Positions 11,275 to 28,821 of a stretch of 64,000 bases of DNA are shown one piece after another. A program made the position numbers and the translations under genes. This DNA is from Longimicrobiales bacterium (GTDB lineage: Bacteria; Gemmatimonadota; Gemmatimonadetes; Longimicrobiales; Gaopeijiaceae), in contig JAWLHJ010000004.1 in assembly GCA_041690395.1 (NCBI GenBank), forward strand, positions 337,365-401,364, written 5' to 3'. Numbering within the stretch: position 1 is the first letter of the stretch; the number at the start of each line of letters is the position of its first letter. Below the pieces are notes generated by a model that saw only the letters and a list, made by a program, of their open reading frames with translations, had not been told where the DNA came from and did not search any database.

Positions 11275-11383
11275 TCGGTACTGCTCCAGATCGGGTCCGT
11301 ATGTAGTTCACGGGTACTTTGAAGTTAACGGACCGGGGATGCAGGACCAAGCATGGGGGTTGTCCGCACCGAAGGGTGTCATA

Positions 11384-11407
11384 TATTCATATTCGAATCG
11401 ATGAATA
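11384..11407. promoter_or_regulatory. Candidate SahR autoregulatory operator
   Basis: AT-rich inverted repeat TATTCAT-N10-ATGAATA overlapping the regulator start codon. Confidence 0.45.
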
Positions 11408-12368
11408 CATTGACGCCCCCACCCATCCTGGACCATCTGAACGCGCTCGGCGACGAGACGCGGGTCCGTATCCTCGCGTTGCTCGACCGTAGCGAGTTCA
11501 CGGTCGGGGAGCTCGGCGCGGTTCTGCAGATCGCCCAACCGTCCGTGAGCCGGCACCTGAAGACGCTGGCCGACGAGGGGTGGGTGGAGGCGCGCCAGGA
11601 CGGACGGCTCCGCCACTACCGTTTCTCGGCCGGCATCGACGATTCCGCGCGGGACCTCTGGTCGATCGTGCGCGCGCGGCTCGGCACAAATGGTCCTTAT
11701 GCGGCCGACGGTGAGCGGGCGGCCGCGGTGCTGCACGACCGACGGCTGCGCTCCGCCGAGTTCTTCGCGCGTGCCGCGGAGCGCTGGGACGGCCTCCGCG
11801 AGGAGCTGTTCGGGCGCGACGTCCGCTTCGCTCCCCTGCTCGGCCTGCTCGACCCCGACTGGACCGTCGGTGATCTCGGCACAGGGACGGGCGCGCTCGC
11901 CCGCCTCGTGGCGCCGTTCGTCGAGCGCGTCGTCGGCGTCGATCGCTCCGAGGAGATGCTCGAGGCCGCCCGCCATCGCCTCGAAGGGCTGGAGAACGTG
12001 GAGCTCCGGAGCGGATCGCTCGAGGAGTTGCCCATCGAGAACGGAGAGCTCGACATCGCGCTCCTGTCGCTCGTGCTCCACTACGTCGTCGATCCGCCCC
12101 ACGTGCTCGCCGAGGTCCGGCGCGCGCTGAGGCCCGGTGGGCGCGTCGTGCTGCTCGAGATGCGCCTCCACGAGCGGGGCGTCGGCTATGCCGAGGAGAT
12201 GGGTCACGTATGGCCCGGCTTCGAGCCGGGCCGCCTCGACGGGTGGCTGGCCGATGCCGGCTTCGGCGGCATCCGCACGAACCTGCTCGCGCCCGACCCG
12301 TCGGCGAGCGGGCCCCTGTTGTTCCTCACGACCGCTTCCGTATCCACCAAGAAAGGAAGGACATCCAC

Positions 12369-12372
<4 letters not shown>
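11401..12372 (+). CDS. sahR: ArsR HTH + SAM-methyltransferase-domain regulator (SahR-type)
   Basis: N-terminal ArsR ([19 protein letters not shown]) and C-terminal DLGTGTG SAM-binding fold. Coupled to ahcY by an ATGA overlap. Confidence 0.82.
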
Positions 12373-13859
<1,487 letters not shown>

Positions 13860-13941
13860 GCCGGTGACGTACCGGCAAGCGCGCCCGAGGGTGCGGCGTG
13901 CCGATGCGGCGGGTCTTCCGGACCCGGTGAATGCGAAATGG

Positions 13942-13978
13942 GGGGGCGGCGTCCGAGAGGGCGCCGTCCCCTTCTTTT
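13942..13978 (+). terminator. Rho-independent terminator after ahcY
   Basis: GC stem GGGGCGGCGTCC-GAGA-GGGCGCCGTCCC followed by TTCTTTT. Confidence 0.75.
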
Positions 13979-14183
13979 CGCCGACTGGGCTGATCGGTAG
14001 TCGCCGGTAGGGGAGATCCCCTACACGCGGCGTCGACCTTCTCCCGCCACCGCCGGAGCCCGGTGCGAGCCATCTTTTTGTCGTGGGGGGCGTTGCCCTC
14101 CACCTGATCAAGAAGACTACGCCCCGCCGGTCGGGTATCGATCCCGACGCCCGCCTCCGGGACGGTCGAAGGAGGTCGATGCG

Positions 14184-14705
14184 ATGCGCAGCACGAGATC
14201 AATCGCGTGGACGGCCGGAGTGGCCGTCCTTCTCGCGCTCCCGGACATGGCGACGGCTCAGGATCCGGCCGTGGTTCAGCAGCAGATGCAGGAACAGGTG
14301 CAGCGGATGCAGGAGCATGCCCGTCAGCTGACCCAGGCGATGGATCAGATGGCGAACGTGCAGCAGCGCGCTCACCAGATCGAACAGCAGCTCGTTCGTG
14401 AGATGGAACAGCACCGGCTGCAGCGGGACGTCGACGTCCAGGTGGCCGAGCGGTTGCGTTACGAGGAGCGCCTTCGGGAGATGGCGCATTCCATGAACGT
14501 GGGCGCCCAGGAGATGCACCGTGCGATGGAGCAGCTCCGAAACATGGCGGAGCAGGCCGAAGCCCCCTTCCGTGGCAACATGGAGCAGGAGGTCGAGCGG
14601 CTCCGGAACCACTGGGAGTCGATGACCGGCTCCATGGAAGAAGGGCTCAGGCTCCTCGAGCGGTTGAGGGATCGGGTCCAGGCATCGGCGCCGACAGGCG
14701 GCTGA
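14184..14705 (+). CDS. Secreted Gln/Met/His-rich alpha-helical protein, unknown function
   Basis: GGAGG RBS upstream, signal peptide ending ATA-Q, heptad-like helical body with about 13 Met and 6 His. Confidence 0.75.
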   Translation: MRSTRSIAWTAGVAVLLALPDMATAQDPAVVQQQMQEQVQRMQEHARQLTQAMDQMANVQQRAHQIEQQLVREMEQHRLQRDVDVQVAERLRYEERLREMAHSMNVGAQEMHRAMEQLRNMAEQAEAPFRGNMEQEVERLRNHWESMTGSMEEGLRLLERLRDRVQASAPTGG

Positions 14706-14712
14706 GGCTGCC

Positions 14713-15648
14713 ATGAGACCCGAGGCACCCTCGGGCGGCGCCGCGTGGTGGCGCTCGGTCGTGGCCGGGCTGGTCCTGGCCGCGGCCGGCGCTCCCGGCC
14801 TGCCGTGGAGCCCCGAGCCCCTGCTCGGCCAGACCGTCCGCTATTCGGGGTCGGTCAGCTACTCGACCGGCTCCTACCTGTTCGCGGAGCGTACCCATTC
14901 GTTCTGGCTGTCGAACGGGCTCAGCGTCCGCGGCCCGAAGCTCAGCGCATCGGCTACGCTTCCACTGATCCTGCAGAACAGCGGCGTCGTGAGCGTGGTG
15001 GGCGGACAGCCGGTGCCGACGGGGGGCCAGGGCAGCGGTGTGGTGGGTCGGCGGGCGGGTGACGGAACGATCGGCACGAGGCGAGGGGGCGGTAGTGGTG
15101 CGGGTGGAGGCATGCTCCCGACCGACTCCGTGGTCGTGTTCCGTGACCAGTACGCCCTGGAGGTCGGCGATCCATCCCTGCGCCTCGGCTATGACGCGTA
15201 CTCGGGTTTCGGGTTCTTGAGATCGGTCTCGCTCAGCCTCGGGACCAAAGCCCCCCTGCGCGGCCTGGAGTCCGGCGTCGGAACCGGCGAGTGGGATGTC
15301 GGGGCGGGCGCATCCGTCGCCATGGGCGTGGGGAGCACCTGGTTCTTCCTGGACGGCGCACACTGGTGGTTCGGCGACCTCCCGGAGCTCGAGCTCGAGG
15401 ACGGTGTGCTGTATTCCGCCGGTGTTTCCCGGCTCTTCGGTGAGAGCGGAACGTCATTGATCGCGAGCATCTCCGGGAGCAGCCGGATCGTGCCGACGGC
15501 GGCCGCTCCCCTTAGTGTATCTTTGGGCCTGTCACGATTCCTGGACCGGGGGCGGTCCCTCTCGCTCGGCCTGACGGCCGGGCTGAGCGAAGCGTCCCCT
15601 GACCTGTCGGCCTATTTCGGATGGAGTCTTCCCGTGGGAGGATCATGA
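14713..15648 (+). CDS. Putative outer-membrane beta-barrel protein
   Basis: Signal peptide, then alternating hydrophobic/Ser-Gly strands (YSGSVSYSTGSY, SLSLGLTAG, SAYFGWSL). Overlaps the next gene. Confidence 0.65.
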   Translation: MRPEAPSGGAAWWRSVVAGLVLAAAGAPGLPWSPEPLLGQTVRYSGSVSYSTGSYLFAERTHSFWLSNGLSVRGPKLSASATLPLILQNSGVVSVVGGQPVPTGGQGSGVVGRRAGDGTIGTRRGGGSGAGGGMLPTDSVVVFRDQYALEVGDPSLRLGYDAYSGFGFLRSVSLSLGTKAPLRGLESGVGTGEWDVGAGASVAMGVGSTWFFLDGAHWWFGDLPELELEDGVLYSAGVSRLFGESGTSLIASISGSSRIVPTAAAPLSVSLGLSRFLDRGRSLSLGLTAGLSEASPDLSAYFGWSLPVGGS

Positions 15649-16808
15649 CGATGAGCACGACGCGCGTACCGCGGCCCCACCCCCCCGGCGTGCTCGGGGC
15701 GGGACTGTTGCTCACGGCGCTCCTGGCGGGCCCGGCCAGCGCCCAGGTGGGTGAGGGCCCCTGGCCGCCCACGGACTACGCTTCGATGAACGGTGAGGAG
15801 CTCTACCGCGAAGCGTGCGCCGGATGCCACGGCCCCGACGGCACCGGTATGCCGTCGTCCGCGGTGGGCTTCCTGATCCCGCTGCCGGACTTCACCGATT
15901 GCAGCTTCGCGACGCGTGAGCCCGATTCGGATTGGCTGGCGGTCGCGCACGACGGCGGCCCGACGCGGGGCTTCGACCCGCTCATGCCGGCCATCGGCGG
16001 CGTGCTCACCGTCGAACAGCTGCAGCTCGCCCTGGACCACATCCGCACGATGTGCACCGATGACAGCTGGCCCCGTGGCGAGCTCAACCTGCCCCGGGCG
16101 ATGGTGACGGAGAAGGCGTATCCCGAGGACGAAGCGGTCTTTACGTACGGCGCCTCCCTCGACGGGCCGGGCGTGCACACGGGCGAATTCGTCTATGAGA
16201 AGCGGTTCGGGGCCCGGAACCAGATCGAGTTCGTGGTGCCGTTCTCGTATCGGTCCCGAGGGGACGGCGCTTCGTGGCAAGGAGGGCTCGGCGATCTCGT
16301 CGTGGGCGTCAAGCGCGCATTCTACCATAGCATGGAGAAGGGATCGATCTTCAGCGCGGCGGCCGAGATCAAGCTTCCGACGGGTGACTACGAGAGTGGC
16401 TTCGGTGCGGGCACGCCGGTGTTCGAGACCTTCGCCTCCTACGGACACAGCCTGCCCGCCGACGCGTTCCTGCAGCTCCAGGGCGTCTACGAGCGCCCCT
16501 TCGACACGGACCGGGCCGGTGATGAGGCCGCCCTCCGTTTGGTCCTCGGAAAGAGCTTCACCCAGGGTGCGTGGGGGCGGACCTGGAGTCCGATGGTCGA
16601 GGTCCTGTCGAGCCGCGAGCTCGAGGACGGCGCGACGATCCACTGGGACGTGGTGCCGCAGTTCCAGGTGACGCTCAATACCCGGCAGCACGTGATGGCG
16701 AACCTGGCGGTGAGGGTGCCGGTCAACGACACGGCCACCCGCGAGCCCACGCTGCTCGTCTACATCCTGTTGGACTGGTTCGACGGCGGATTCTTCGAGG
16801 GATGGTAA
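15645..16808 (+). CDS. Cytochrome c domain fused to a C-terminal beta-barrel-like domain
   Basis: Signal peptide, GEELYREACAGCHG (CxxCH), candidate axial Met in LMPAIG. The C-terminal half has amphipathic strands, a KLPTG motif and an aromatic end (GFFEGW). Confidence 0.75.
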   Translation: MTMSTTRVPRPHPPGVLGAGLLLTALLAGPASAQVGEGPWPPTDYASMNGEELYREACAGCHGPDGTGMPSSAVGFLIPLPDFTDCSFATREPDSDWLAVAHDGGPTRGFDPLMPAIGGVLTVEQLQLALDHIRTMCTDDSWPRGELNLPRAMVTEKAYPEDEAVFTYGASLDGPGVHTGEFVYEKRFGARNQIEFVVPFSYRSRGDGASWQGGLGDLVVGVKRAFYHSMEKGSIFSAAAEIKLPTGDYESGFGAGTPVFETFASYGHSLPADAFLQLQGVYERPFDTDRAGDEAALRLVLGKSFTQGAWGRTWSPMVEVLSSRELEDGATIHWDVVPQFQVTLNTRQHVMANLAVRVPVNDTATREPTLLVYILLDWFDGGFFEGW

Positions 16809-16810
16809 CC

Positions 16811-18484
16811 ATGCGCATCATGACCTATACGGCATCGCTGACCGCGCTCCTCAGCGTGGGGTACGTGGTGGGCGACCTGTTCGCCCAGACGGCGTCTACC
16901 CCGTTCGAGCCGTCGTCCCAGGAAGCCCTCGCCGCGCACGGCGGCGCCGTGCGCCTCTTCGAGACGAGCGATATGTGCCTCGCCTGCCACAACGGCGTCA
17001 CCACCGCGCTCGGCGAGGACATCTCCATCGGGTTCGACTGGCGGGCCTCGATGATGGCCAACGCCGCCCGCGACCCGTACTGGCAGGCGGCGGTACGCCG
17101 TGAGATCACGGACCACCCCGGTGCACGGGAGGCCATCGAGGACAAATGCTCCACGTGCCACATGCCCATCGCGCGGTACTCGGCCCACCTGACCGGGGGC
17201 ATGGGTGAGGTGTTCGGGAGCCTCCCGCGGTACGGCGCGGACCCGCAGCTCGCCGCCGATGCGCTCGACGGCGTGTCGTGCTCCGTGTGCCATCAGATTG
17301 CAGACTCGAACCTGGGCTCACCGGAGAGCTTCACCGGGGGCTTCGAGGTCGACGAGCGCACGGCGACGGGCGAGCGCACCATCTACGGTCCCTTCGAAGT
17401 CGATGACGGGCGGGTGCGCCTCATGCAGTCCGCGTCCGGCTTCCGGCCCGAAGAGTCGCCCCACATCCAGTCGTCCGAGCTGTGCGCGTCCTGCCACACA
17501 CTCTACACGCACTCGCTCGACGAGGACGGGAACGAGATCGCCGAGCTCCCCGAGCAGGTCCCGTATCTGGAGTGGCTCCACAGCGATTACCGCGAGGACC
17601 AGAGCTGCCAGTCCTGCCACATGCCCGTCGTCCAGGGGGAGGCCCCGGTGACCAGCGTGCTCGGACAGCCTCGCACCGAGGTGTCCCGGCACGTCTTCCG
17701 GGGCGGCAACTTCTTCATGCTCAGGATGCTGAACCGGTACCGGAACGAGCTCGGGGTCACGGCCCTTCCCCAGGAGCTCGACGCCGCGGCGACACGGACG
17801 GTGGAACACCTCCGCTCCAGCACCGCGCGGATCCGTGTCGACGAGCCCCGTCGCACCGACGGGGGCGTCGCCTTCGACGTGATCGTCGACAACCTGGCCG
17901 GGCACAAGCTGCCCACCGCCTACCCGTCGCGGCGGGCCTGGCTGCACGTGACGGTGAGTGACTCGTCCGGACGGGTGGTCTTCGAGTCCGGCGCGCTCCG
18001 GCCCGACGGCTCCATCGTCGGGAACGACGCGGACGCGGATGCGGACGCCTTCGAGCCGCACTACACCGTCGTGCGCGCGGCCGACGAGGTCCAGATCTAC
18101 GAGTCGGTCCTGGGCGATCCGTCCGGAACGCCGACCACGGGCCTCCTCACCGCGATCAACTACCTGAAGGACAACCGGATCCTGCCGACGGGCTTCGACA
18201 AGGCCACCGCTGATCCGGACATCGCCGTCCGGGGGTCCGCGTTCGACGACGGCGACTTCGTCGGGGGCTCGGACCGGACGCGTTACGAGCTCGACGTCCC
18301 GGGGTCGACCGGCCCGCTCACGGTGGAGGTGTCGCTCTGGTACCAGCCCATCGGCTACCGATGGGCACGCAACCTCGACGACTATACCGATCACTTCGAG
18401 CCGGAGCGGTTCGTGCGGTACTACGACAGCATGGCCGAAGGGTCGGGTGTGCGGATCACGGGAGCGGTGGCAGAGGTGCGATGA
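16811..18484 (+). CDS. Secreted multiheme (5 x CxxCH) c-type cytochrome
   Basis: CLACH, CSTCH, CSVCH, CASCH and CQSCH, plus a C-terminal beta-rich domain starting NLAGHKLPT. Start at MRIMTY. Confidence 0.88.
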   Translation: MRIMTYTASLTALLSVGYVVGDLFAQTASTPFEPSSQEALAAHGGAVRLFETSDMCLACHNGVTTALGEDISIGFDWRASMMANAARDPYWQAAVRREITDHPGAREAIEDKCSTCHMPIARYSAHLTGGMGEVFGSLPRYGADPQLAADALDGVSCSVCHQIADSNLGSPESFTGGFEVDERTATGERTIYGPFEVDDGRVRLMQSASGFRPEESPHIQSSELCASCHTLYTHSLDEDGNEIAELPEQVPYLEWLHSDYREDQSCQSCHMPVVQGEAPVTSVLGQPRTEVSRHVFRGGNFFMLRMLNRYRNELGVTALPQELDAAATRTVEHLRSSTARIRVDEPRRTDGGVAFDVIVDNLAGHKLPTAYPSRRAWLHVTVSDSSGRVVFESGALRPDGSIVGNDADADADAFEPHYTVVRAADEVQIYESVLGDPSGTPTTGLLTAINYLKDNRILPTGFDKATADPDIAVRGSAFDDGDFVGGSDRTRYELDVPGSTGPLTVEVSLWYQPIGYRWARNLDDYTDHFEPERFVRYYDSMAEGSGVRITGAVAEVR

Positions 18485-18518
18485 CCGGCGCCTGGCCGGC
18501 CCGGTAGGGGCTCCCCTC

Positions 18519-18950
18519 CTACCGGAGCGCGGCCAGGTACGCCACCAGAGCGCCGAGATCCCCCTCGGTCATCTCCGCGAACTCCGTCTTGGCTCGCGCC
18601 ACCGAGGGGCTCAGCGAGCCTCGCACCGCGTCGTCCGCGACGACGAACGCATGGATCTCCTCGGGGGTGAGCCGGGAGCCCACGCCGTCGAGCGGGCTCC
18701 GGGGGCTCCCCTCACCCGCGACCCGATGGCACCGGAGGCACCCCTGCTCTTCGAAGACCGCCCGCCCGCGCCGGAGCTCCGCAGGGTCCGGAGGCACGTC
18801 CGGCGGAGGCACGACCGGTGCCGCTTCGGTAGCGGCGGGCGTAGCGTCGGGGACGGGGCCCGTGTTCTGCCGTTCGGCGAACAGCGCCGCCAACCCCACC
18901 ACGAAGACGCCGATCCCCAGCGCGTACCAGCGTGCGATGCGTTCCCTCAT
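18519..18950 (-). CDS. Membrane-anchored monoheme cytochrome c
   Basis: N-terminal TM helix, Pro-rich linker, GRAVFEEQGCLRCH, and C-terminal LVAYL. Confidence 0.82.
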   Translation of the reverse strand: MRERIARWYALGIGVFVVGLAALFAERQNTGPVPDATPAATEAAPVVPPPDVPPDPAELRRGRAVFEEQGCLRCHRVAGEGSPRSPLDGVGSRLTPEEIHAFVVADDAVRGSLSPSVARAKTEFAEMTEGDLGALVAYLAALR

Positions 18951-18965
18951 GATTCGGCCATGGCG

Positions 18966-20288
18966 CTACGCCATCTGGAAGAGCTCGGAGTGAATGCGCC
19001 GGAGGGGCACGCCGGCCTCGAGGAGGGCGTCCTGGGCCATGTCCGTCAACGGCTGCGGACCGCACATGAAGCACAGCGCTCCGTCGGGAAGCTCGGATAG
19101 GGCCTCGCGAACGAGCTCCGGCGTGGGCCACCCCACCGCGCCGTCCCACCCCTCGTGGGGCTCCTCGAAGACATGGTGCACGCGGAGGTCCATGCGCGCC
19201 TCGAGCTCCTTCAGGTCGTCCCGGAGCGGCGTCGCGTCCCAGGCACGGGTCCCGTAGACGAGACGCACGGGCCGCTCGTCACCCCGGTCGGCCATAGCCC
19301 GCAGCATACCCACCATGGGCGCGATCCCCACCCCACCGGCGATCATGAGGAAGCCGGGCGCCGACGGGTGACGATCCACGGTGAAGATGCCGTGCGGACC
19401 ATCGACATAGGCCACGGTTCCGACCTCCGTCTCCCCGATGGTGCCGGTGAAGTCCCCGAGCTCCTTGATGGTGAACTCGAGCGCCGGAGCGTCCTCCGCG
19501 CTCCCGGAGATCGAGAACGGATGCTCCTGCGCACGCAGGGGGGAGCGGCCCAGGGAGATCCAAACGAACTGACCCGGAGCGAAACGGAATCCCTCATGGC
19601 CCTCCGGCTCGAGGCGCAGCCGCCAGCACCGTCCTGGTTCCGCGCTGACCTCCGCGACGCGGTAGGGACGCGCCATCAGGGCGATGGGCTTCATCACCCG
19701 CACGTAGGCCACGATGGCGATGAGGGACCCCAGGACGAAGTCCAGCACGATCCTGGTCCAGAAGAGGCCCGAGTGATATCCGACACCCACCACGTGTACG
19801 AACGCGAGGGCCATACCCGCGACCGCCAGCACGATATGGGCGACGCGCCAACGGTCGTAGGAGATGCCGAAGGTCTTCCGCCAGAGCGAGGAGGCCACGA
19901 GCACGACGAAGATGGCGAGGGCCACGCGGCCCGCCGTCATGTGGAAGGGCGCGTCCCCCGGCCAGAACGGCTCCAGAGTGCGCGGATAGGCCACGCGGAG
20001 GATGGCGTAGTGCGCGACGACCAGCAGAAGCCCGACGACGGCCAGCCAGCGGTGGAGCATGTACAGCACATCCATGCCGAACGGGGCCGTTGCCCGCCGG
20101 AATCGGGCCGTCAGCCAGAACTGTCCACCCATGAGGGCCAACGCCCCGAATCCGAGCCCCATGGAGAAGTCGAACCACCACCCTGCGCCCCGAGCGACGA
20201 CGAGGCCGCTCCCGAGCACGACGAGAGGCGCGGCGATCAGTGCCCCGTAGGCGAACGACCAGAGGAGGCCTGGAACACGGCCCTTCAT
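18966..20288 (-). CDS. Ferric reductase-like / bacterial NOX-like flavocytochrome
   Basis: About 6 TM helices with two H-x13-H heme b pairs, FAD motif HPFS, and NAD(P)H motifs AGGVGIAP and CGP. Confidence 0.88.
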   Translation of the reverse strand: MKGRVPGLLWSFAYGALIAAPLVVLGSGLVVARGAGWWFDFSMGLGFGALALMGGQFWLTARFRRATAPFGMDVLYMLHRWLAVVGLLLVVAHYAILRVAYPRTLEPFWPGDAPFHMTAGRVALAIFVVLVASSLWRKTFGISYDRWRVAHIVLAVAGMALAFVHVVGVGYHSGLFWTRIVLDFVLGSLIAIVAYVRVMKPIALMARPYRVAEVSAEPGRCWRLRLEPEGHEGFRFAPGQFVWISLGRSPLRAQEHPFSISGSAEDAPALEFTIKELGDFTGTIGETEVGTVAYVDGPHGIFTVDRHPSAPGFLMIAGGVGIAPMVGMLRAMADRGDERPVRLVYGTRAWDATPLRDDLKELEARMDLRVHHVFEEPHEGWDGAVGWPTPELVREALSELPDGALCFMCGPQPLTDMAQDALLEAGVPLRRIHSELFQMA

Positions 20289-23059
20289 CCGAGCCCCGTC
20301 CCGCGTCGGCGCTGCCAGGCCTTGTCCAGCTCACCACCCAGGATGACGGTGGCGCCCACGCCCACCACGATGCCCCACTGAGCCGGGTCGAGCGGCACGG
20401 TCCGGAAGACGGTCTGCAGTGGCCCCCAGTACAGCACCGCGATCTGCGCCAGGAGCGCCGCGGACAAGCTCACGAACAGGAAGCGGTTGGAGAACGGCGG
20501 CACACGGAGGATCGACCGCTCGAGCGACCGACAGTTGAAGACGTGGAAGAACTGGAAGACCACCATCTGGGTCATCGCCATGGTTCGCGCCGTGTCGAGA
20601 TCTCCGGTGGCCTCCATCGTCCACCAGAACGTGCCGAGGGTACCGGCGGCCAGGACGACACCGACACCGCCCAAACGCTCGAGCAACCTCCACGGGAGGA
20701 TGCCCTCTCCACGGGGTCTCGGCTTCTTGCTCAGGAGACCCGGCTCACCCGGCTCCACGGCCAGCGCGATGTCCTGCAATCCGTTGGTCACGAGGTTGAT
20801 CCAGAGGATCTGTGCAGCCACGAACGGAAGCGGCCATCCCGCGGCCAGAGCGACGAGAATGGTGATGACCTCCCCCACCGCGGTGGAGAGCAGGAAGAAG
20901 GTGACCTTCCGGATGTTGGCGAAGACCACGCGCCCTTCCTCCACCGCCGCGCGGATGGTGGCGAAGTTGTCGTCCTGCAGGACCATGTCGGACGCTTCGC
21001 GAGCCACGTCGGTTCCGGTGATACCCATGGCGATCCCGAGGTGAGCGGCCCGGAGCGCCGGGGCGTCGTTGACGCCGTCCCCGGTCACCGCGACCACTTC
21101 GCCCCGGATCCGCAGCCGCTCGACGATGCGCAGCTTGTGCTCCGGGGCCACGCGGGCGAAGACGCGCACGCCCTCGTCGAGCACACGGTCCAACTCCTCG
21201 TCGGAGAGCTCGGCGAGCTCCGCGCCTTCGACCGCGCGACTGTCGGACCGGGCCAGCCCCAGCTGCACGCCGATGGCGAGTGCCGTGGCGAGGTGGTCGC
21301 CGGTGAGCATCATGACCGCTACGCCCGCGCCCTGCACGGCGGCGACCGCGTCGATGGCCTCGGGCCTCACCGGATCCTCCATGCCCTGGAGCCCGCAGAA
21401 CACGAAGCCGTCCTCCGTCGCCTCGGCCCCCAACGCCGACTCCGTGGTGTCACGGTACGCCATGGCCAGAACCCTCAGCCCCTCACCTGCCAGATCATGC
21501 GCGGCCTTCCGTATCTCGCGCTCCCGCCCGCGGTCCAGCGAGGCCGTCCCGTCCTCACCCGACACGGCGATGCACCGGGCGAGGACCGCCTCCGGCGCCC
21601 CCTTCATGTAGATCCGGAATCCCTCACCGAACCGCACGAGCGTCGCCATGAACTGCAGCTCGGGCTCGAACGGAAGCAGGTCGAGCTCGGGAAAGAGCTC
21701 CCGCTCGGACTTCGGCGCGATACCGGCCTTGGCCGCGGCCACCAACAGGGCGACCTCCGTGGGATCGCCCAGGGGATTTCCATCGTCTCCGACGATGCGC
21801 GCATCCGCTTCGCTGGCGAGCACACCGGCACGCAGCGTCTCCAGTAGAGGCGGGCGATCGTCGGCGTTCACCGGCTCCCCGTCGGCCTGGATCCCCCCTT
21901 CCGCATCGTATCCCACGCCCGTGACGTCGAAGCGCGCCCCCGACGTCCAGATGGTCCGCACGGTCATCTCGTTCCGCGTGAGGGTCCCCGTCTTGTCCGA
22001 GGCGATGACCGTCGTGCTGCCCAGCGTTTCCACCGCCGGGAGCCTGCGGACGATTGCCTTGCGCGCCGCCATCCTGCGGACGCCCACGGCGAGGGTGACC
22101 GTCAGCACCACCGGAAGACCCTCGGGAATCGCAGACACCGCCAGGGCCACCGTCGTCATGAAGACCTCGGCCCACCCCAGGCCACGGAGGAAGCCGAGCA
22201 CCGCGGCGACCAGCGACAGCCCGACCAGGGCAATCCCCACCCGCTTCCCGAAGTCATGCACGCTGACCTGGAGCGGGCTCCGGACCTCGCCCGCCTGCTG
22301 GACGGCCTCGGCGATCCGGCCCACCTCGGTGCGGCCGCCGGTGAGGACCACCAGGCCGCGCCCCCTTCCCCGCGTCACCATCGTCGCGCCGAACGCCATG
22401 TTGATCTGGTCGCCGGCCACGGGGGTGCCCTCGAGCTCCGCCTGTGGATCCTTGCGCACCGGGACGGACTCACCGGTGAGCATGGACTCGTCGACCTCCA
22501 GGTCCACGGACCGGAGCAAGCGCAGATCCGCCGGCACCCGGGCTCCGGACGCCAGAAGCACCACATCTCCCGGGACGAGGTCCTCCGCGGCCACTTGCCG
22601 AACTTCTCCGTCCCGGAGCACCTCGGCCTTGGGCGCGCTCAGACGGGCCAGCGCCAGCATGGCCTGACGCGCCTTGAACTCCTGCACGAACCCGATCAAG
22701 GCGTTGAGGAGCACCACCACCAGGATGACCGCGGCATCGACGTAATCGTCCAGGGCGATGGTGACGGCCGCCGCTACCAGGAGGATATAGATGAGGGGAT
22801 CACGGAACTGGTGGATCGCCAGCGACCACCACGGCTCCACCTCTTCCACACGGATCGTGTTGGGGCCGTAGCGCCCTAGACGGGCCCGGGCTTCCTCCGA
22901 GCCAAGCCCGTCGGCAGTGCTCTCCAGCCGCAGGGTGGCCTCGTCGGACCGGAGGGACCACCAGGGTGTGGGCTCCGCGTCACCGGCCTGACCGGTCGCG
23001 CCAGCCCCTTCGGGCGCGGAGGGCCCTTCGTCTGGGGACCTGAGGGACCGGTTCGGCAC
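20285..23059 (-). CDS. Cation-transporting P-type ATPase (P2A/Ca2+-like)
   Basis: TGES, AIPEGLP, DKTGTLT, KGAPE, TGD, GDGVNDAPAL, QILWINLVTN. GTG start at 23059 inferred; the longer ORF runs through the divergent promoter. Confidence 0.93.
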   Translation of the reverse strand: MPNRSLRSPDEGPSAPEGAGATGQAGDAEPTPWWSLRSDEATLRLESTADGLGSEEARARLGRYGPNTIRVEEVEPWWSLAIHQFRDPLIYILLVAAAVTIALDDYVDAAVILVVVLLNALIGFVQEFKARQAMLALARLSAPKAEVLRDGEVRQVAAEDLVPGDVVLLASGARVPADLRLLRSVDLEVDESMLTGESVPVRKDPQAELEGTPVAGDQINMAFGATMVTRGRGRGLVVLTGGRTEVGRIAEAVQQAGEVRSPLQVSVHDFGKRVGIALVGLSLVAAVLGFLRGLGWAEVFMTTVALAVSAIPEGLPVVLTVTLAVGVRRMAARKAIVRRLPAVETLGSTTVIASDKTGTLTRNEMTVRTIWTSGARFDVTGVGYDAEGGIQADGEPVNADDRPPLLETLRAGVLASEADARIVGDDGNPLGDPTEVALLVAAAKAGIAPKSERELFPELDLLPFEPELQFMATLVRFGEGFRIYMKGAPEAVLARCIAVSGEDGTASLDRGREREIRKAAHDLAGEGLRVLAMAYRDTTESALGAEATEDGFVFCGLQGMEDPVRPEAIDAVAAVQGAGVAVMMLTGDHLATALAIGVQLGLARSDSRAVEGAELAELSDEELDRVLDEGVRVFARVAPEHKLRIVERLRIRGEVVAVTGDGVNDAPALRAAHLGIAMGITGTDVAREASDMVLQDDNFATIRAAVEEGRVVFANIRKVTFFLLSTAVGEVITILVALAAGWPLPFVAAQILWINLVTNGLQDIALAVEPGEPGLLSKKPRPRGEGILPWRLLERLGGVGVVLAAGTLGTFWWTMEATGDLDTARTMAMTQMVVFQFFHVFNCRSLERSILRVPPFSNRFLFVSLSAALLAQIAVLYWGPLQTVFRTVPLDPAQWGIVVGVGATVILGGELDKAWQRRRGTGLG

Positions 23060-23190
23060 GAAGTCAGCCTGGGAAAGGAACGAGCGTCGGGGCGGGCGGA
23101 GGGTCCGAATCACGCTAGCGACGGAAGGGATCGGCGGCAACGAGGGGGGGCGGGCAACAGATGGCCGACCGGTCAGACCGGATGCCGTGG

Positions 23191-23240
23191 TTGACACGAT
23201 TTTAGGACGACCTAATATTTCTATTTGAGGCCGTCCTAAA
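23191..23240 (+). promoter_or_regulatory. Sigma70 promoter overlapped by a tandem DtxR/MntR-like operator
   Basis: TTGACA (23191)-16nt-TAATAT, with TTTAGGACGACCTAA and TTGAGGCCGTCCTAAA boxes. Confidence 0.7.
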
Positions 23241-23258
23241 CCATGCAGGTATCCTCTC

Positions 23259-25478
23259 ATGCCCATGCATGCTTCCTTGTTGATCCCGACGCTGATTATC
23301 GGCTTCGCGCTCCCACCCTCAGGCCTGCGCGCCGCTCAGGACGCCGAGGTGGGGCACGCCCTGGCCGGCCGGGTGGTCGACGAGGCGGGCGCTCCCGTCG
23401 CCTTCGCGGAGGCCTCGCTCGCGGGCCGCCAGGGCTCGGCGCTGGCGGACCGGACCGGCCTGTTCCAGCTACGGGGGCTCCCCGTGGGCGGGCACCGGCT
23501 CGTCGTGTCCGCCACGGGCTACGCCACCACAGAGCACGAGGTCGACGTTCCGGCGGGCGCGCCCGCGACCATCGTGCTCAGGACGGACCCGGTCGCTCTC
23601 GAAGCGCTGACCGTGACCGGCACGATGCAGCGGACCTCGGTTGCCGAGTCCCCGGTCAAGATCGACGTCGTGCCCGGTCGTGTGCTCCAGCGCAACGCGA
23701 CGAACAACCTCACGGAGGCAATCCAGTACGTGAACGGCCTCTATACCCAGATCGACTGCGGCGTCTGCTACACGAACAGCATTCGGATCAACGGGATGGA
23801 GGGTCCCTATACCGCGGTCCTGATCGACGGGATGCCGCTGATGAGCGCGCTCGCTTCCGTATACGGACTCAACGGTCTGAACCCGGCGCTCATCGAACAG
23901 ATCGAGATCGTGAAGGGACCGGCCTCGACGCTGTACGGCTCCGAGGCGATGGCGGGGGTGATCAACGTGATCACCAAGGACCCCCGCTTCGCCCCGAAGC
24001 TCTCGGTCGATGCCCGCGCCACGTCGGATGCGGAGGGGAACCTGGACGGCGCCGTGGCCTCGGAGCCCGGAGACGTGAGCGGTTTCGTCAGCGGCAACGT
24101 GGCGTACAACCAGAGGTTCGTGGACGAAAACGGCGACGGGTTCACGGACTTCCCCCTGACCCGGCGCGCGGTCGTGTTCGCCAAGGTCGATAGATCCATG
24201 GACGGGATGCGGCGCGGAGGCCTGAGCGCCCGTTATCTCTGGGAGGATCGCTTCGGAGGCGTCGAGGCGTGGACTCCCGCCGACCGCGGAAGCGACCAGG
24301 TCTACGGCGAGTCGATCGTCACGCGACGGGCCGAGCTCATCGGCTCCTGGACCCCGGAGTGGAGCCCAGGGCTGCGGGTCGAAGGGTCGTACACGTGGCA
24401 CGACCAGCGGAGCCATTACGGCGACGCCTCGTTCGATGCCACCCAGCACGTCGGCTTCGCGAACGTGCTCCTCACGCGGCGCGTCGGGGCGCACGCGCTG
24501 CTCTTCGGCGCCACGACCCGGCTCGAGTCGTACGACGACGACACGCCCGCGACGCCGAGCGCCGACCGGCGCTGGGTGCCGGGTCTCTTCGTTCAGGACG
24601 AGGTACGGTTCGGGGGTGGCTCCACGGTGCTCGCGGGGGCACGAGTCGATCGCTACGGAGCGCACGGCCTCGTGGTCTCGCCTCGCCTGGCCCTCAAGTG
24701 GGAGCCCCTCGAGCACACGGCCCTCCGCCTGAACGCCGGCACCGGATTCCGGGCGGTCCATCTCTTCACCGAGGACCATGCCGCCCTCACGGGGTCCCGC
24801 GAGGTCATCATCGCGTCCGAGCTCGAGCCCGAGCGGTCGAGGAGCGTCACGCTGAACGTGAACCAGGTCGTCGAGTTCGGGCCGAACCCGATGATGATCG
24901 ACCTGGACCTGTTCCATACGCGCTTCAGCAACAAGATCGTCCCCGACTACGACGTCGACCCTCGGTGGATCGTGTACGACAACCTCGGGGGACACGCGGT
25001 GAGCCGGGGCATCTCGCTGTCGCTGAACCAGAACGTGGACTTCGACCGCTTCCTCTACTCGGTGGGCGTCACGTTCCAGGACGTCTTCACCGAGCGCGGC
25101 GGGACGCGGGAGGACGAGTTCTTCGCGCCGAGCACGCGCGCCGTTCTGGGCGCCACCTACAACGCGCGAGACCTGCCGTTCTCGCTCGATTACACCGGGT
25201 CCGTGACAGGGCCGATGCGGCTGCCGAGCTACGCGGCTCCGTTCGAGAGACCCGAGCGCTCAGCGACGTATTCGGTTCACAACCTGCAGGGCACGTGGCG
25301 GCTCGAGAACGGCACCCAGCTCTACCTGGGCGTGAAGAACCTGCTCGACTTCGTGCAGCCGAGCGCGCTCGTGAATCCGGCGGAGCCATTCAGCGACAGC
25401 TTCGACACGGCCTACGTATACGGGCCGCTGCGGGGTCGGCACCTCATGCTCGGGGTCCGCTACGGGCTTGCGCGATGA
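23259..25478 (+). CDS. TonB-dependent receptor
   Basis: Signal peptide, carboxypeptidase-regulatory-like N-domain, TonB box-like LTVTG, plug (VLIDG, IEIVKGPASTLYGSEAMAGVINVITK) and barrel ending with KNLLD...GVRY. Confidence 0.93.
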   Translation: MPMHASLLIPTLIIGFALPPSGLRAAQDAEVGHALAGRVVDEAGAPVAFAEASLAGRQGSALADRTGLFQLRGLPVGGHRLVVSATGYATTEHEVDVPAGAPATIVLRTDPVALEALTVTGTMQRTSVAESPVKIDVVPGRVLQRNATNNLTEAIQYVNGLYTQIDCGVCYTNSIRINGMEGPYTAVLIDGMPLMSALASVYGLNGLNPALIEQIEIVKGPASTLYGSEAMAGVINVITKDPRFAPKLSVDARATSDAEGNLDGAVASEPGDVSGFVSGNVAYNQRFVDENGDGFTDFPLTRRAVVFAKVDRSMDGMRRGGLSARYLWEDRFGGVEAWTPADRGSDQVYGESIVTRRAELIGSWTPEWSPGLRVEGSYTWHDQRSHYGDASFDATQHVGFANVLLTRRVGAHALLFGATTRLESYDDDTPATPSADRRWVPGLFVQDEVRFGGGSTVLAGARVDRYGAHGLVVSPRLALKWEPLEHTALRLNAGTGFRAVHLFTEDHAALTGSREVIIASELEPERSRSVTLNVNQVVEFGPNPMMIDLDLFHTRFSNKIVPDYDVDPRWIVYDNLGGHAVSRGISLSLNQNVDFDRFLYSVGVTFQDVFTERGGTREDEFFAPSTRAVLGATYNARDLPFSLDYTGSVTGPMRLPSYAAPFERPERSATYSVHNLQGTWRLENGTQLYLGVKNLLDFVQPSALVNPAEPFSDSFDTAYVYGPLRGRHLMLGVRYGLAR

Positions 25479-26071
25479 GGCGAGCCGCCTCCCTCCTGCC
25501 GCTGTCGCTCGCGGAATGCCCGACCCGGTTCATGGCCGTGGTCCTGGTGGCCCTTGGCGCGGCGTCGACCCTCGGGCCCGAGTCCGTCGATGGCCAGACG
25601 TCATCCTCCGGGATCGACGCCACGATCGACACCGCGCTCGTCACGTTCGGCGACGCGGACTACTCGTGGAAGATCCGGCCAATGGAGGGCGCCACCACGA
25701 CACTCGGGTCATTCCAGGGCGAAGTCCTCTTCATCAACCTGTGGGCGTCGTGGTGCGCGCCGTGCGTGCGCGAGCTCGCGAGCATCGAGCGGCTTCGTGA
25801 GCGACTCCGGGACACGGACGTGCGCTTCCTGATCGTGGCGGCCGAAGGAGAGCGGCCCGTCCGACGGTTCCTGCGTCGGTACGGCTATGACCTCCCCTTC
25901 TACCTAGAGGTATCCCGCATGCCCGCGACCTTCGGGCTCCGTGGGCTCCCCACCACCTGGGTCATCGACCGCGACGGGCACATCGTCCTGCTTCGACATG
26001 GCGAAGCGGTGTGGGACACGGACGAGGTGGAGGCCCTTCTACGGCGGGTCCGGGAGACAGACTCGCTCTAG
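25475..26071 (+). CDS. TlpA-family thiol-disulfide oxidoreductase
   Basis: [15 protein letters not shown] and [16 protein letters not shown] overlap with the receptor stop. Confidence 0.88.
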
Positions 26072-26072
26072 A

Positions 26073-26103
26073 TCTGGATCAATTCCAAATCTCAGGCTAT
26101 CTT
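26073..26103 (+). promoter_or_regulatory. Candidate FurA/PerR operator and -10 element
   Basis: Imperfect inverted repeat TCTGGA-TCAAT-TCCAAA, and TATCTT ending 5 nt before the fur ATG. Confidence 0.4.
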
Positions 26104-26108
26104 GTCGC

Positions 26109-28821
<2,713 letters not shown>

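Follow-up and report, generated by a model that had tools for sequence, protein, structure and literature searches.

The one family of fused cytochrome-porins that I found described in the literature is Cyc2, a monoheme Fe(II) oxidase in which a signal peptide and a single N-terminal CxxCH motif precede a C-terminal outer-membrane barrel, the heme being periplasmic. Cyc2 proteins are described as carrying an AXPXFAR[Q/K][T/Y] motif five residues before CxxCH (PMC8406198), as having a 16-stranded, OprO/OprP-like barrel (PMC8406198, PMC13647500) and as feeding rusticyanin (PMC10654088). In MtrAB and Pcc systems, an outer-membrane barrel is instead encoded with a multiheme cytochrome. Here I analyse four genes, A to D, located at positions 14184-18484 of a 64,000-nucleotide (nt) stretch of DNA from a Longimicrobiales bacterium of the Gemmatimonadota (assembly GCA_041690395.1, contig JAWLHJ010000004.1, positions 337,365 to 401,364; the whole stretch is hereafter called the window). 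A first-pass annotation had read these genes as one undescribed outer-membrane redox module that matches neither MtrAB nor Cyc2. This description is supported for C and D only: C has the same plan as Cyc2 but is made of different parts, and D is a pentaheme cytochrome whose gene is the usual companion of C.

The AlphaFold model of C, obtained with 115 sequences, has a mean predicted local distance difference test (pLDDT) score of 89.7 and comprises a helical domain and twelve long strands. The helical domain superimposes on the class I cytochrome 7o38 (Z 11.3, root-mean-square deviation (rmsd) 1.9, 81 residues aligned), and the barrel on FapF 5o65 (Z 22.6, rmsd 2.7, 220 aligned) and on the COG4313 channel Pput2725 4rl8 (Z 21.9, rmsd 2.9, 217 aligned); C also passes the PF13557 cut-off (30.5 versus 22 bits). 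The model thus agrees with the initial description of C as a CxxCH domain fused to a barrel, the two parts being predicted to fold as a cytochrome c and a 12-stranded barrel. Residues C58, C61, H62, M114, C86 and C137 are each kept at 96-99% in 278 sequences, a pattern of conservation from which I infer a His/Met-ligated heme plus one disulfide.

The topology of C was approached by covariation over 278 rows (effective number 200). Linker residues 149-159 covary with strands 1, 4, 5, 6, 7, 10 and 11, with plug couplings at ranks 4, 11, 14, 21, 25 and 29, and the height of the linker in the barrel is low at 149, high at 153-154 and mid at 159. Because of these heights and of couplings all round the barrel, the linker reads as a hairpin plug. 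In addition, the heme-domain residues F110 and R91 are coupled (ranks 16 and 33) to D162, which lies at the foot of strand 1; the weaker couplings, ranked lower than 40, are dispersed, include one to an outer loop, and are probably noise. Conservation of the plug (0.78) is among the highest in the protein, the short turns score 0.79 (T1), 0.76 (T5) and 0.53-0.60 (T2-T4), and the C-terminal tail 0.79, while five of the six long outer loops are variable (0.26-0.49; L3, 0.65). Given the couplings of the plug and of D162, the conserved turns and tail and the variable outer loops, the heme most likely faces the periplasm, beneath a plugged pore. Charged residues that are invariant in the barrel are E185, R187, E195, E241, E261, E294, R298 and E319. 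The plug of Pput2725 is likewise described as entering from the periplasmic side, with little hydrophilic material passing (PMC4493636). The earlier idea of a heme conduit across the membrane is not supported by this topology, in which the barrel is plugged and its single heme is most likely periplasmic.

The likeness of C to Cyc2 extends from the overall plan to the next carrier, which may be a blue copper protein in both cases (rusticyanin for Cyc2, an amicyanin-like protein for C, see below). That C could itself be a Cyc2 was considered and rejected on motif and strand count: the AXPXFAR motif is absent from C and from the C-family consensus, and the barrel is of the 12-stranded COG4313/FapF type, not of the 16-stranded OprO/P type. 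C differs further in having a complete class I domain, some 90 residues long and containing Met114, in the separate peptide plug between heme and pore, in the strong conservation of its barrel, and in its surroundings, where the usual partner is a pentaheme and cyc1 and oxidase genes are absent nearby. Cyc2 did not appear among the fold-search matches, which excludes nothing. With the COG4313/PF13557 channels (Pput2725, 4RL8; FapF, 5O65; SphA; TcpY), C shares the 12 strands and a lumen plug that enters from the periplasm (PMC4493636); it differs from them in having both a cytochrome c domain and a redox partner, neither of which I found in the literature for described members.

The model of D (pLDDT 91.3) has one clear fold match, the penta-heme cytochrome c552 of T. 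tepidum, 5ZE8 (Foldseek E 1.9e-17; Z 26.0, rmsd 2.8, 351 residues aligned; next best Z 8.7). There are five CxxCH motifs in D, as against one in C, and with these, the c552 fold and an immunoglobulin (Ig)-like domain D belongs to the PHC fold family, which upholds its first-pass reading as a 5-heme cytochrome. Members of this family include c552 (5ZE8), ExtKL/MccSep and GSU2801 (PMC11976967, 10.1101/2025.11.18.688581), and D shares with them the five CxxCH motifs, the helical heme domain and the Ig-like C-terminus; it is nevertheless only 17-22% identical to c552, has several invariant Met, and is coupled to a heme-bearing barrel. The pentaheme and Ig-domain family takes in Geobacter ExtKL (PMC11976967), described as the polysulfide reductase MccSep, in which Cys239, a heme ligand, and the selenocysteine (Sec) 325 are required (10.1101/2025.11.18.688581). 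D has no such Cys/Sec pair: Cys is absent outside the heme motifs of D and of 93 of 100 relatives, and the invariant Tyr371 occupies the Sec325 position in an ungapped match to the MccSep peptide. Furthermore, D scores 29.9 bits with the ExtKL model, whose cut-off is 250, and an ExtKL family search of this genome returned no match. The identification of D as an MccSep/ExtKL polysulfide reductase was rejected because it lacks the Cys/Sec counterpart and falls far below the ExtKL cut-off. Besides Y371, the invariant non-heme residues of D are E248, Q249, H365, R374, R375 and K453, and its invariant Met are M82, M118, M205 and M271.

D also resembles, by description, PtdA of the ptdABCDEFG cluster; PtdB differs from C in being a plain porin, and Ptd adds tetraheme, decaheme, iron-sulfur and flavin proteins (10.1101/2023.11.21.568154). 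The seven-gene order of Ptd was not found at C+D loci, none of these additional Ptd proteins is recurrent there, and no other multiheme gene lies near C+D in this genome. As in MtrAB/Pcc, an outer-membrane barrel is encoded with a multiheme cytochrome, but C+D have neither a decaheme, nor a 26-stranded barrel, nor a surface cytochrome, and D is predicted to dock outside the pore. By strand count, plug, heme count and motif, then, C+D match neither MtrAB nor Cyc2, and for this pair alone the term undescribed outer-membrane redox module stands. A peat preprint on new porin-cytochrome clusters treats 8-13-heme systems, its main text being silent on pentaheme, monoheme and fused proteins (10.64898/2026.05.27.727921). 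My literature search found no paper on the C+D pair, which subscription journals, the Ptd tables, or the supplements to the peat preprint and the MccSep report could mention.

The association of C with D was examined in two sets of loci. C homologues form at least 4443 protein clusters and occur at 553 confirmed GTDB loci or more, of which the best 80 were used; the second set derives from an evenly drawn phylum sample, where C is present in 62 of 301 genomes and where 60 of the 62 loci were fetched, this genome and one congener being omitted. The two sets overlap partly and several genera are sampled repeatedly, so that the counts are not independent events. D is found in 71 of the best 80 GTDB loci, directly downstream of C in 68 and divergent in 3; the other 9 have either an amicyanin-like copper protein directly behind C (6 loci) or neither gene (3 loci). 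In the even sample, 35 loci have D, 9 the copper protein and 16 neither. All 44 close C members in this sample (at least 399 bits) have D or the copper protein, and the partnerless 16 belong to a divergent clade of shorter C proteins (162-219 bits), 3 of them lying near contig ends. When D was searched for in five copper-type and five stand-alone genomes, no orthologue was retrieved, the matches being weak (E 1e-5 to 6e-11) or nil. A conserved third partner for C+D was also sought, and none emerged among the 80 loci or the flanking open reading frames (ORFs).

The copper partner is secreted and has the motif His...Cys-x2-His-x2-Met; among redox proteins it matches amicyanin best (E 2.5e-4), and it also carries a carboxypeptidase-regulatory-like domain (loci L034, L049, L053, L067, L078, L093, L116-L125 and L152). 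Since a one-electron carrier stands in for D, this exchange argues that C needs an electron partner rather than the chemistry of D. In a FastTree phylogeny of 139 C sequences, 15 copper-paired sequences lie in one weak group (support 0.76) amid D-paired ones; this group also holds 1 D-paired and 3 partnerless sequences, and its support is too low for the events to be put in order. By contrast with this weak group, 15 stand-alone sequences of the same tree form a clade with support 1.0. The stand-alone proteins (L156-L171) are about 330 amino acids (aa) long and have trimmed outer loops, the heme ligands, plug and tail being kept.

Record titles place C in Gemmatimonadota, Acidobacteriota, Balneolota/Rhodothermota, Myxococcota, Proteobacteria and others, and cultured hosts include Fodinibius sediminis DSM 21194 and Rhodohalobacter sp. 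8-1 for C and Longibacter salinarum for D. Among the 80 records, eight bear the title Eubacteriales or Dehalococcoidia (L023, L032, L033, L035, L036, L039, L088 and L086), and three of these eight share a neighbour family with an Aminicenantes-titled record. Such cells would lack an outer membrane, and mislabelling of these C+D records is likely.

Prediction of the C-D complex gave a score of 0.76, the best of three controls scoring 0.00; the score mark was attained for 116 solved pairs out of 157 and for 2 mismatched pairs out of 215, figures that are only approximate with the alignments used. The runs share at least 78% of their contacts, with a partner pLDDT of at least 89. On the C side the predicted interface consists of residues 56-61, 72-77 and 112-121, around the heme, and on the D side of residues 53-66, 199-210 and 277-287, which surround heme 1; the corresponding heme of MccSep is described as solvent-exposed and as the likely electron entry point (10.1101/2025.11.18.688581). 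The prediction supports a mode of docking in which D sits on C, heme edge to heme-1 face. Covariation between the two proteins over 102 pairs (effective number 74) gave no signal: the top z was 6.5, compared with 6.1-6.3 after shuffling, and none of the top 30 pairs fell in the predicted interface, the alignment being too shallow.

A tentative proposal, in which my confidence falls somewhat short of even, is that C+D constitute a channel-gated periplasmic redox unit that oxidises a small molecule at C and sends the electrons inward through D. C would act as a plugged 12-stranded outer-membrane barrel with its one-heme domain at the likely periplasmic face; a small redox-active molecule would be admitted or held by the barrel and oxidised at C, and D, docked at the C heme, would pass the electrons inward, probably serving mainly as a carrier or store. 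C would exchange electrons with whichever carrier is encoded beside it, pentaheme or copper protein. The substrate could be a metal in solution, as ion or chelate, a compound of the quinone or phenazine type, or a sulfur species. High potentials are usual for class I hemes with His/Met ligation and for copper sites of the amicyanin type. Inward flow is favoured because a copper protein with a site of this kind substitutes for D, and the combination of such a heme with such a copper site fits inward flow, as from Cyc2 to rusticyanin.

Several observations weigh against this proposal. The surroundings of C offer no help, as each neighbour family is limited to at most 9 of the best 80 GTDB C loci and the 97 flanking ORFs are a mixture in which neither respiration nor sulfur nor iron stands out. 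COG4313 channels have been proposed as a route for hydrophobic molecules that scarcely admits ions (PMC4493636). The closest solved relative of D is titled a low-potential cytochrome and its family includes the reductase MccSep, both facts being compatible with outward flow or with D as the site of catalysis, and the invariant polar residues of D resemble, and may form, an active site. The stand-alone C clade (16 of 60 loci) is without a neighbouring partner, and a D orthologue is lacking in all five of its genomes that were tested. The copper swap may be one event, 8 of the 9 copper-paired genomes of the even sample being from one genus. Finally, to judge by their titles, the records that contain the pair include aerobic heterotrophs as well as anaerobes, and no known iron oxidiser is among the titles.

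A bolder hypothesis, which I consider rather unlikely, is that C is a second, independently evolved fused cytochrome-porin, that is, a gated small-molecule channel turned surface oxidase, with an exchangeable pentaheme or blue-copper partner, drawing electrons from dissolved Fe(II), humic quinones or sulfur species. If this were true, abundant 'heterotrophic' soil and sediment bacteria would draw electrons from outside, and current iron-gene screens would miss C. More generally, if C trades electrons with an outside compound, it would represent an uncounted metal, sulfur or humic redox route in dominant soil and sediment groups; C is far more conserved than Cyc2, and it is common, being present in about a fifth of the Gemmatimonadota-level genomes sampled and in several other phyla.

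Instead of being mainly a carrier, D could be an enzyme with an open catalytic heme 2, acting on a small inorganic periplasmic substrate, in which case C would tether it, relay electrons at heme 1 and perhaps feed it substrate. This alternative is doubtful but accounts for the c552/ExtKL fold of D and for the position of the invariant Y371, borne by a loop equivalent to the one that supplies residues for catalysis at heme 2 in MccSep; moreover, NrfA (3ubr, E 0.36) gives a weak alignment to the segment of D preceding heme 5, Geobacter ExtKL adjoins a porin gene (PMC11976967), and the route by which the MccSep substrate crosses the outer membrane is left open by its authors (10.1101/2025.11.18.688581). 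What it leaves unexplained is that C239 and U325 of MccSep have no counterpart in D, whose score with the ExtKL model is far from the cut-off, that a simple copper carrier takes the place of D at 15 loci, and that C persists without D.

It is improbable that the C barrel is just an anchor or a vestigial channel through which nothing passes, C serving to position its redox partner for envelope redox upkeep, stress defence or sensing. The highly conserved plug could indeed be a permanent seal, the outer loops are variable and are shortened in the stand-alone clade, and at two loci a Cys-tailed sigma factor gene lies between C+D and A+B, with a ferritin-like gene at one of them (see below). However, the invariant charged residues of the barrel seem more numerous than a plain anchor would need, and a lipoprotein anchor would be far cheaper.

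That A-D form a four-protein wire is very improbable and already largely refuted by the gene surveys, for although this genome and three congeneric ones have the four genes in close succession and the two halves lie close together in two metagenome loci, A and B are missing from 79 of the 80 GTDB C loci and from all 60 of the even sample, co-occurrence of B and C by genome is not above chance, a 12-stranded plugged barrel is too small for a multiheme wire (MtrB is 26-stranded), and D has no lipobox and is predicted to dock on the C heme domain, not in the pore.

A+B form one pair and C+D another, and the four do not make up a single machine. The B survey covered 80 metagenome loci, 65 of them distinct, of which 64 had the 600 nt of room needed for A; an A homologue adjoins B in 62 of these 64, and in 11 of 15 genome loci. 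Conversely, A+B occur in a single one of the 80 GTDB C loci, and neither gene in any of the 60 evenly sampled ones. Genomes with B also hold C in 4 cases out of 27, compared with 5.6 expected by chance, and in 2 of the 4 the genes are on different contigs. The A-B-C-D string was observed only in 4 of 7 genomes of this genus (this genome and three others); one of the remaining three has C+D with a B fragment, and two are without a full C match. A single four-gene system, as supposed in the first-pass annotation, was rejected on these C-locus and B-locus surveys.

The two pairs may nonetheless share a stress regulon. C+D lie within 2 kb of A+B, in divergent orientation, in 2 of the 80 B metagenome loci, which exceeds chance, and in both a gene for an extracytoplasmic function (ECF) sigma factor with a four-cysteine C-terminal tail sits between them, one locus also having the ferritin-like gene. 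The same sigma factor precedes A+B in two further loci (L182:2926-3744, L201:2118-3002, L262:2-823 and L108:4998-5966 in all, L182 and L201 being the C+D loci). No close copy of this Cys-tailed factor was found in the present genome.

A+B (loci L175-L270) is a second, smaller envelope module, conserved and uncharacterised. The description of A as Met/His-rich holds for Met and fails for His: mature A contains 16% Q, 13.5% E, 12.8% R, 8.8% M and 4.1% H, and its family (70 homologues) has medians of 13.7% M, 18.9% Q and 2.2% H. An embedding (Atlas) search with A led to nameless clusters (best score 0.89), which is a lead only. B, proposed as a putative beta-barrel, is supported in this by three lines of sequence comparison: its family profile matches FapF (E 8.5e-4), PF13557 is matched by 21 of 113 relatives (B itself has no Pfam match), and its best Atlas embedding match is a PF13557-type cluster (0.99). 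B seems to be plug-less, because its first strand comes directly after the signal peptide; it would be a channel of the COG4313/PF13557 kind, but one apparently devoid of plug and provided with a secreted helical partner, and A might serve as a plug or cap for B or be its export substrate. When the profiles of B and C were compared, the probability was 5% (E 0.008), and the two had only motifs in common. A multicopper oxidase gene follows B in three loci (L176, L181 and L185).

As first noted, the four genes are co-oriented and tightly packed, with spacings of 7 nt, an ATGA overlap and 2 nt according to the ORF coordinates (Table 1). Inspection by eye likewise agrees with signal peptides on all four products, each with a hydrophobic stretch, cleavage before Gln and no lipobox Cys. 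None of the ORFs is a chance frame, because all four have conserved homologue families; the closest named homologues are from Gemmatimonadota genomes, and the GC content is even over the region. A promoter and terminator scan of positions 13700-19100 found none, and a sequencing-run search returned no run containing half of the locus words. In two RNA libraries, short pieces from relatives overlap parts of A-D; these are contigs, possibly DNA-derived.

Table 1. Genes A-D and the parts of C, in window coordinates
Feature	Position	Strand	Length	Assignment	Details and basis
Gene A	14184..14705	+	173 aa	Secreted all-helical Gln/Glu/Arg/Met-rich protein; opens the separate A+B pair	Weak, sub-cut-off coiled-coil-type Pfam matches only; homologue adjoins B in 62/64 metagenome loci with room
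Gene B	14713..15648	+	311 aa	Putative heme-free COG4313/FapF-like outer-membrane barrel	Long Gly-rich loop; apparently without N-terminal plug
Gene C	15645..16808	+	387 aa	Signal peptide, class I cytochrome c, lumen plug and 12-stranded COG4313/FapF-type barrel	The component of the redox core that stays constant
Cytochrome c domain of C	15786..16055	+		Residues 48-137	C58/C61/H62 motif, likely axial Met114, likely disulfide C86-C137
Conserved linker of C	16056..16130	+		Residues 138-162; predicted hairpin plug inside the barrel	Covariation
12-stranded barrel of C	16131..16772	+		Residues 163-376	Fold match to FapF and Pput2725
Gene D	16811..18484	+	557 aa	Secreted cytochrome c with five hemes and an Ig-like C-terminal domain; predicted to dock on C	c552/ExtKL/PtdA-like fold

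Downstream of D, a convergent run on the minus strand (18519-23266) encodes a monoheme cytochrome c with a membrane anchor, a membrane protein that resembles ferric reductases and has flavin adenine dinucleotide (FAD)/nicotinamide adenine dinucleotide (NAD) domains, and a P-type ATPase. The reductase and ATPase genes are kept beside D in three genomes of the genus and are not recurrent in the wider loci; the run could be a local source of electrons for D. Elsewhere in this genome, other multiheme clusters lie (contig:positions) at C3:662060-665013 (16+19 hemes, counted by motif here and below), C6:85635-91865 (16+17+8), C5:506722-508729 (a 4+5 pair) and C1:352930-353547 (one 5-heme protein); I take the 4+5-heme pair to resemble NrfH/NrfA, and the separate 5-heme protein presumably resembles ActA. 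At positions 11353-13859 of the window, an ArsR-type regulator fused to a methyltransferase is followed by another gene, which I take to encode an S-adenosylhomocysteine hydrolase, and these genes lie upstream of A in congeners. Positions 23259-26606 contain a TonB-dependent receptor gene and then ORFs that, by eye, are thioredoxin-like and of the Fur/PerR regulator type.

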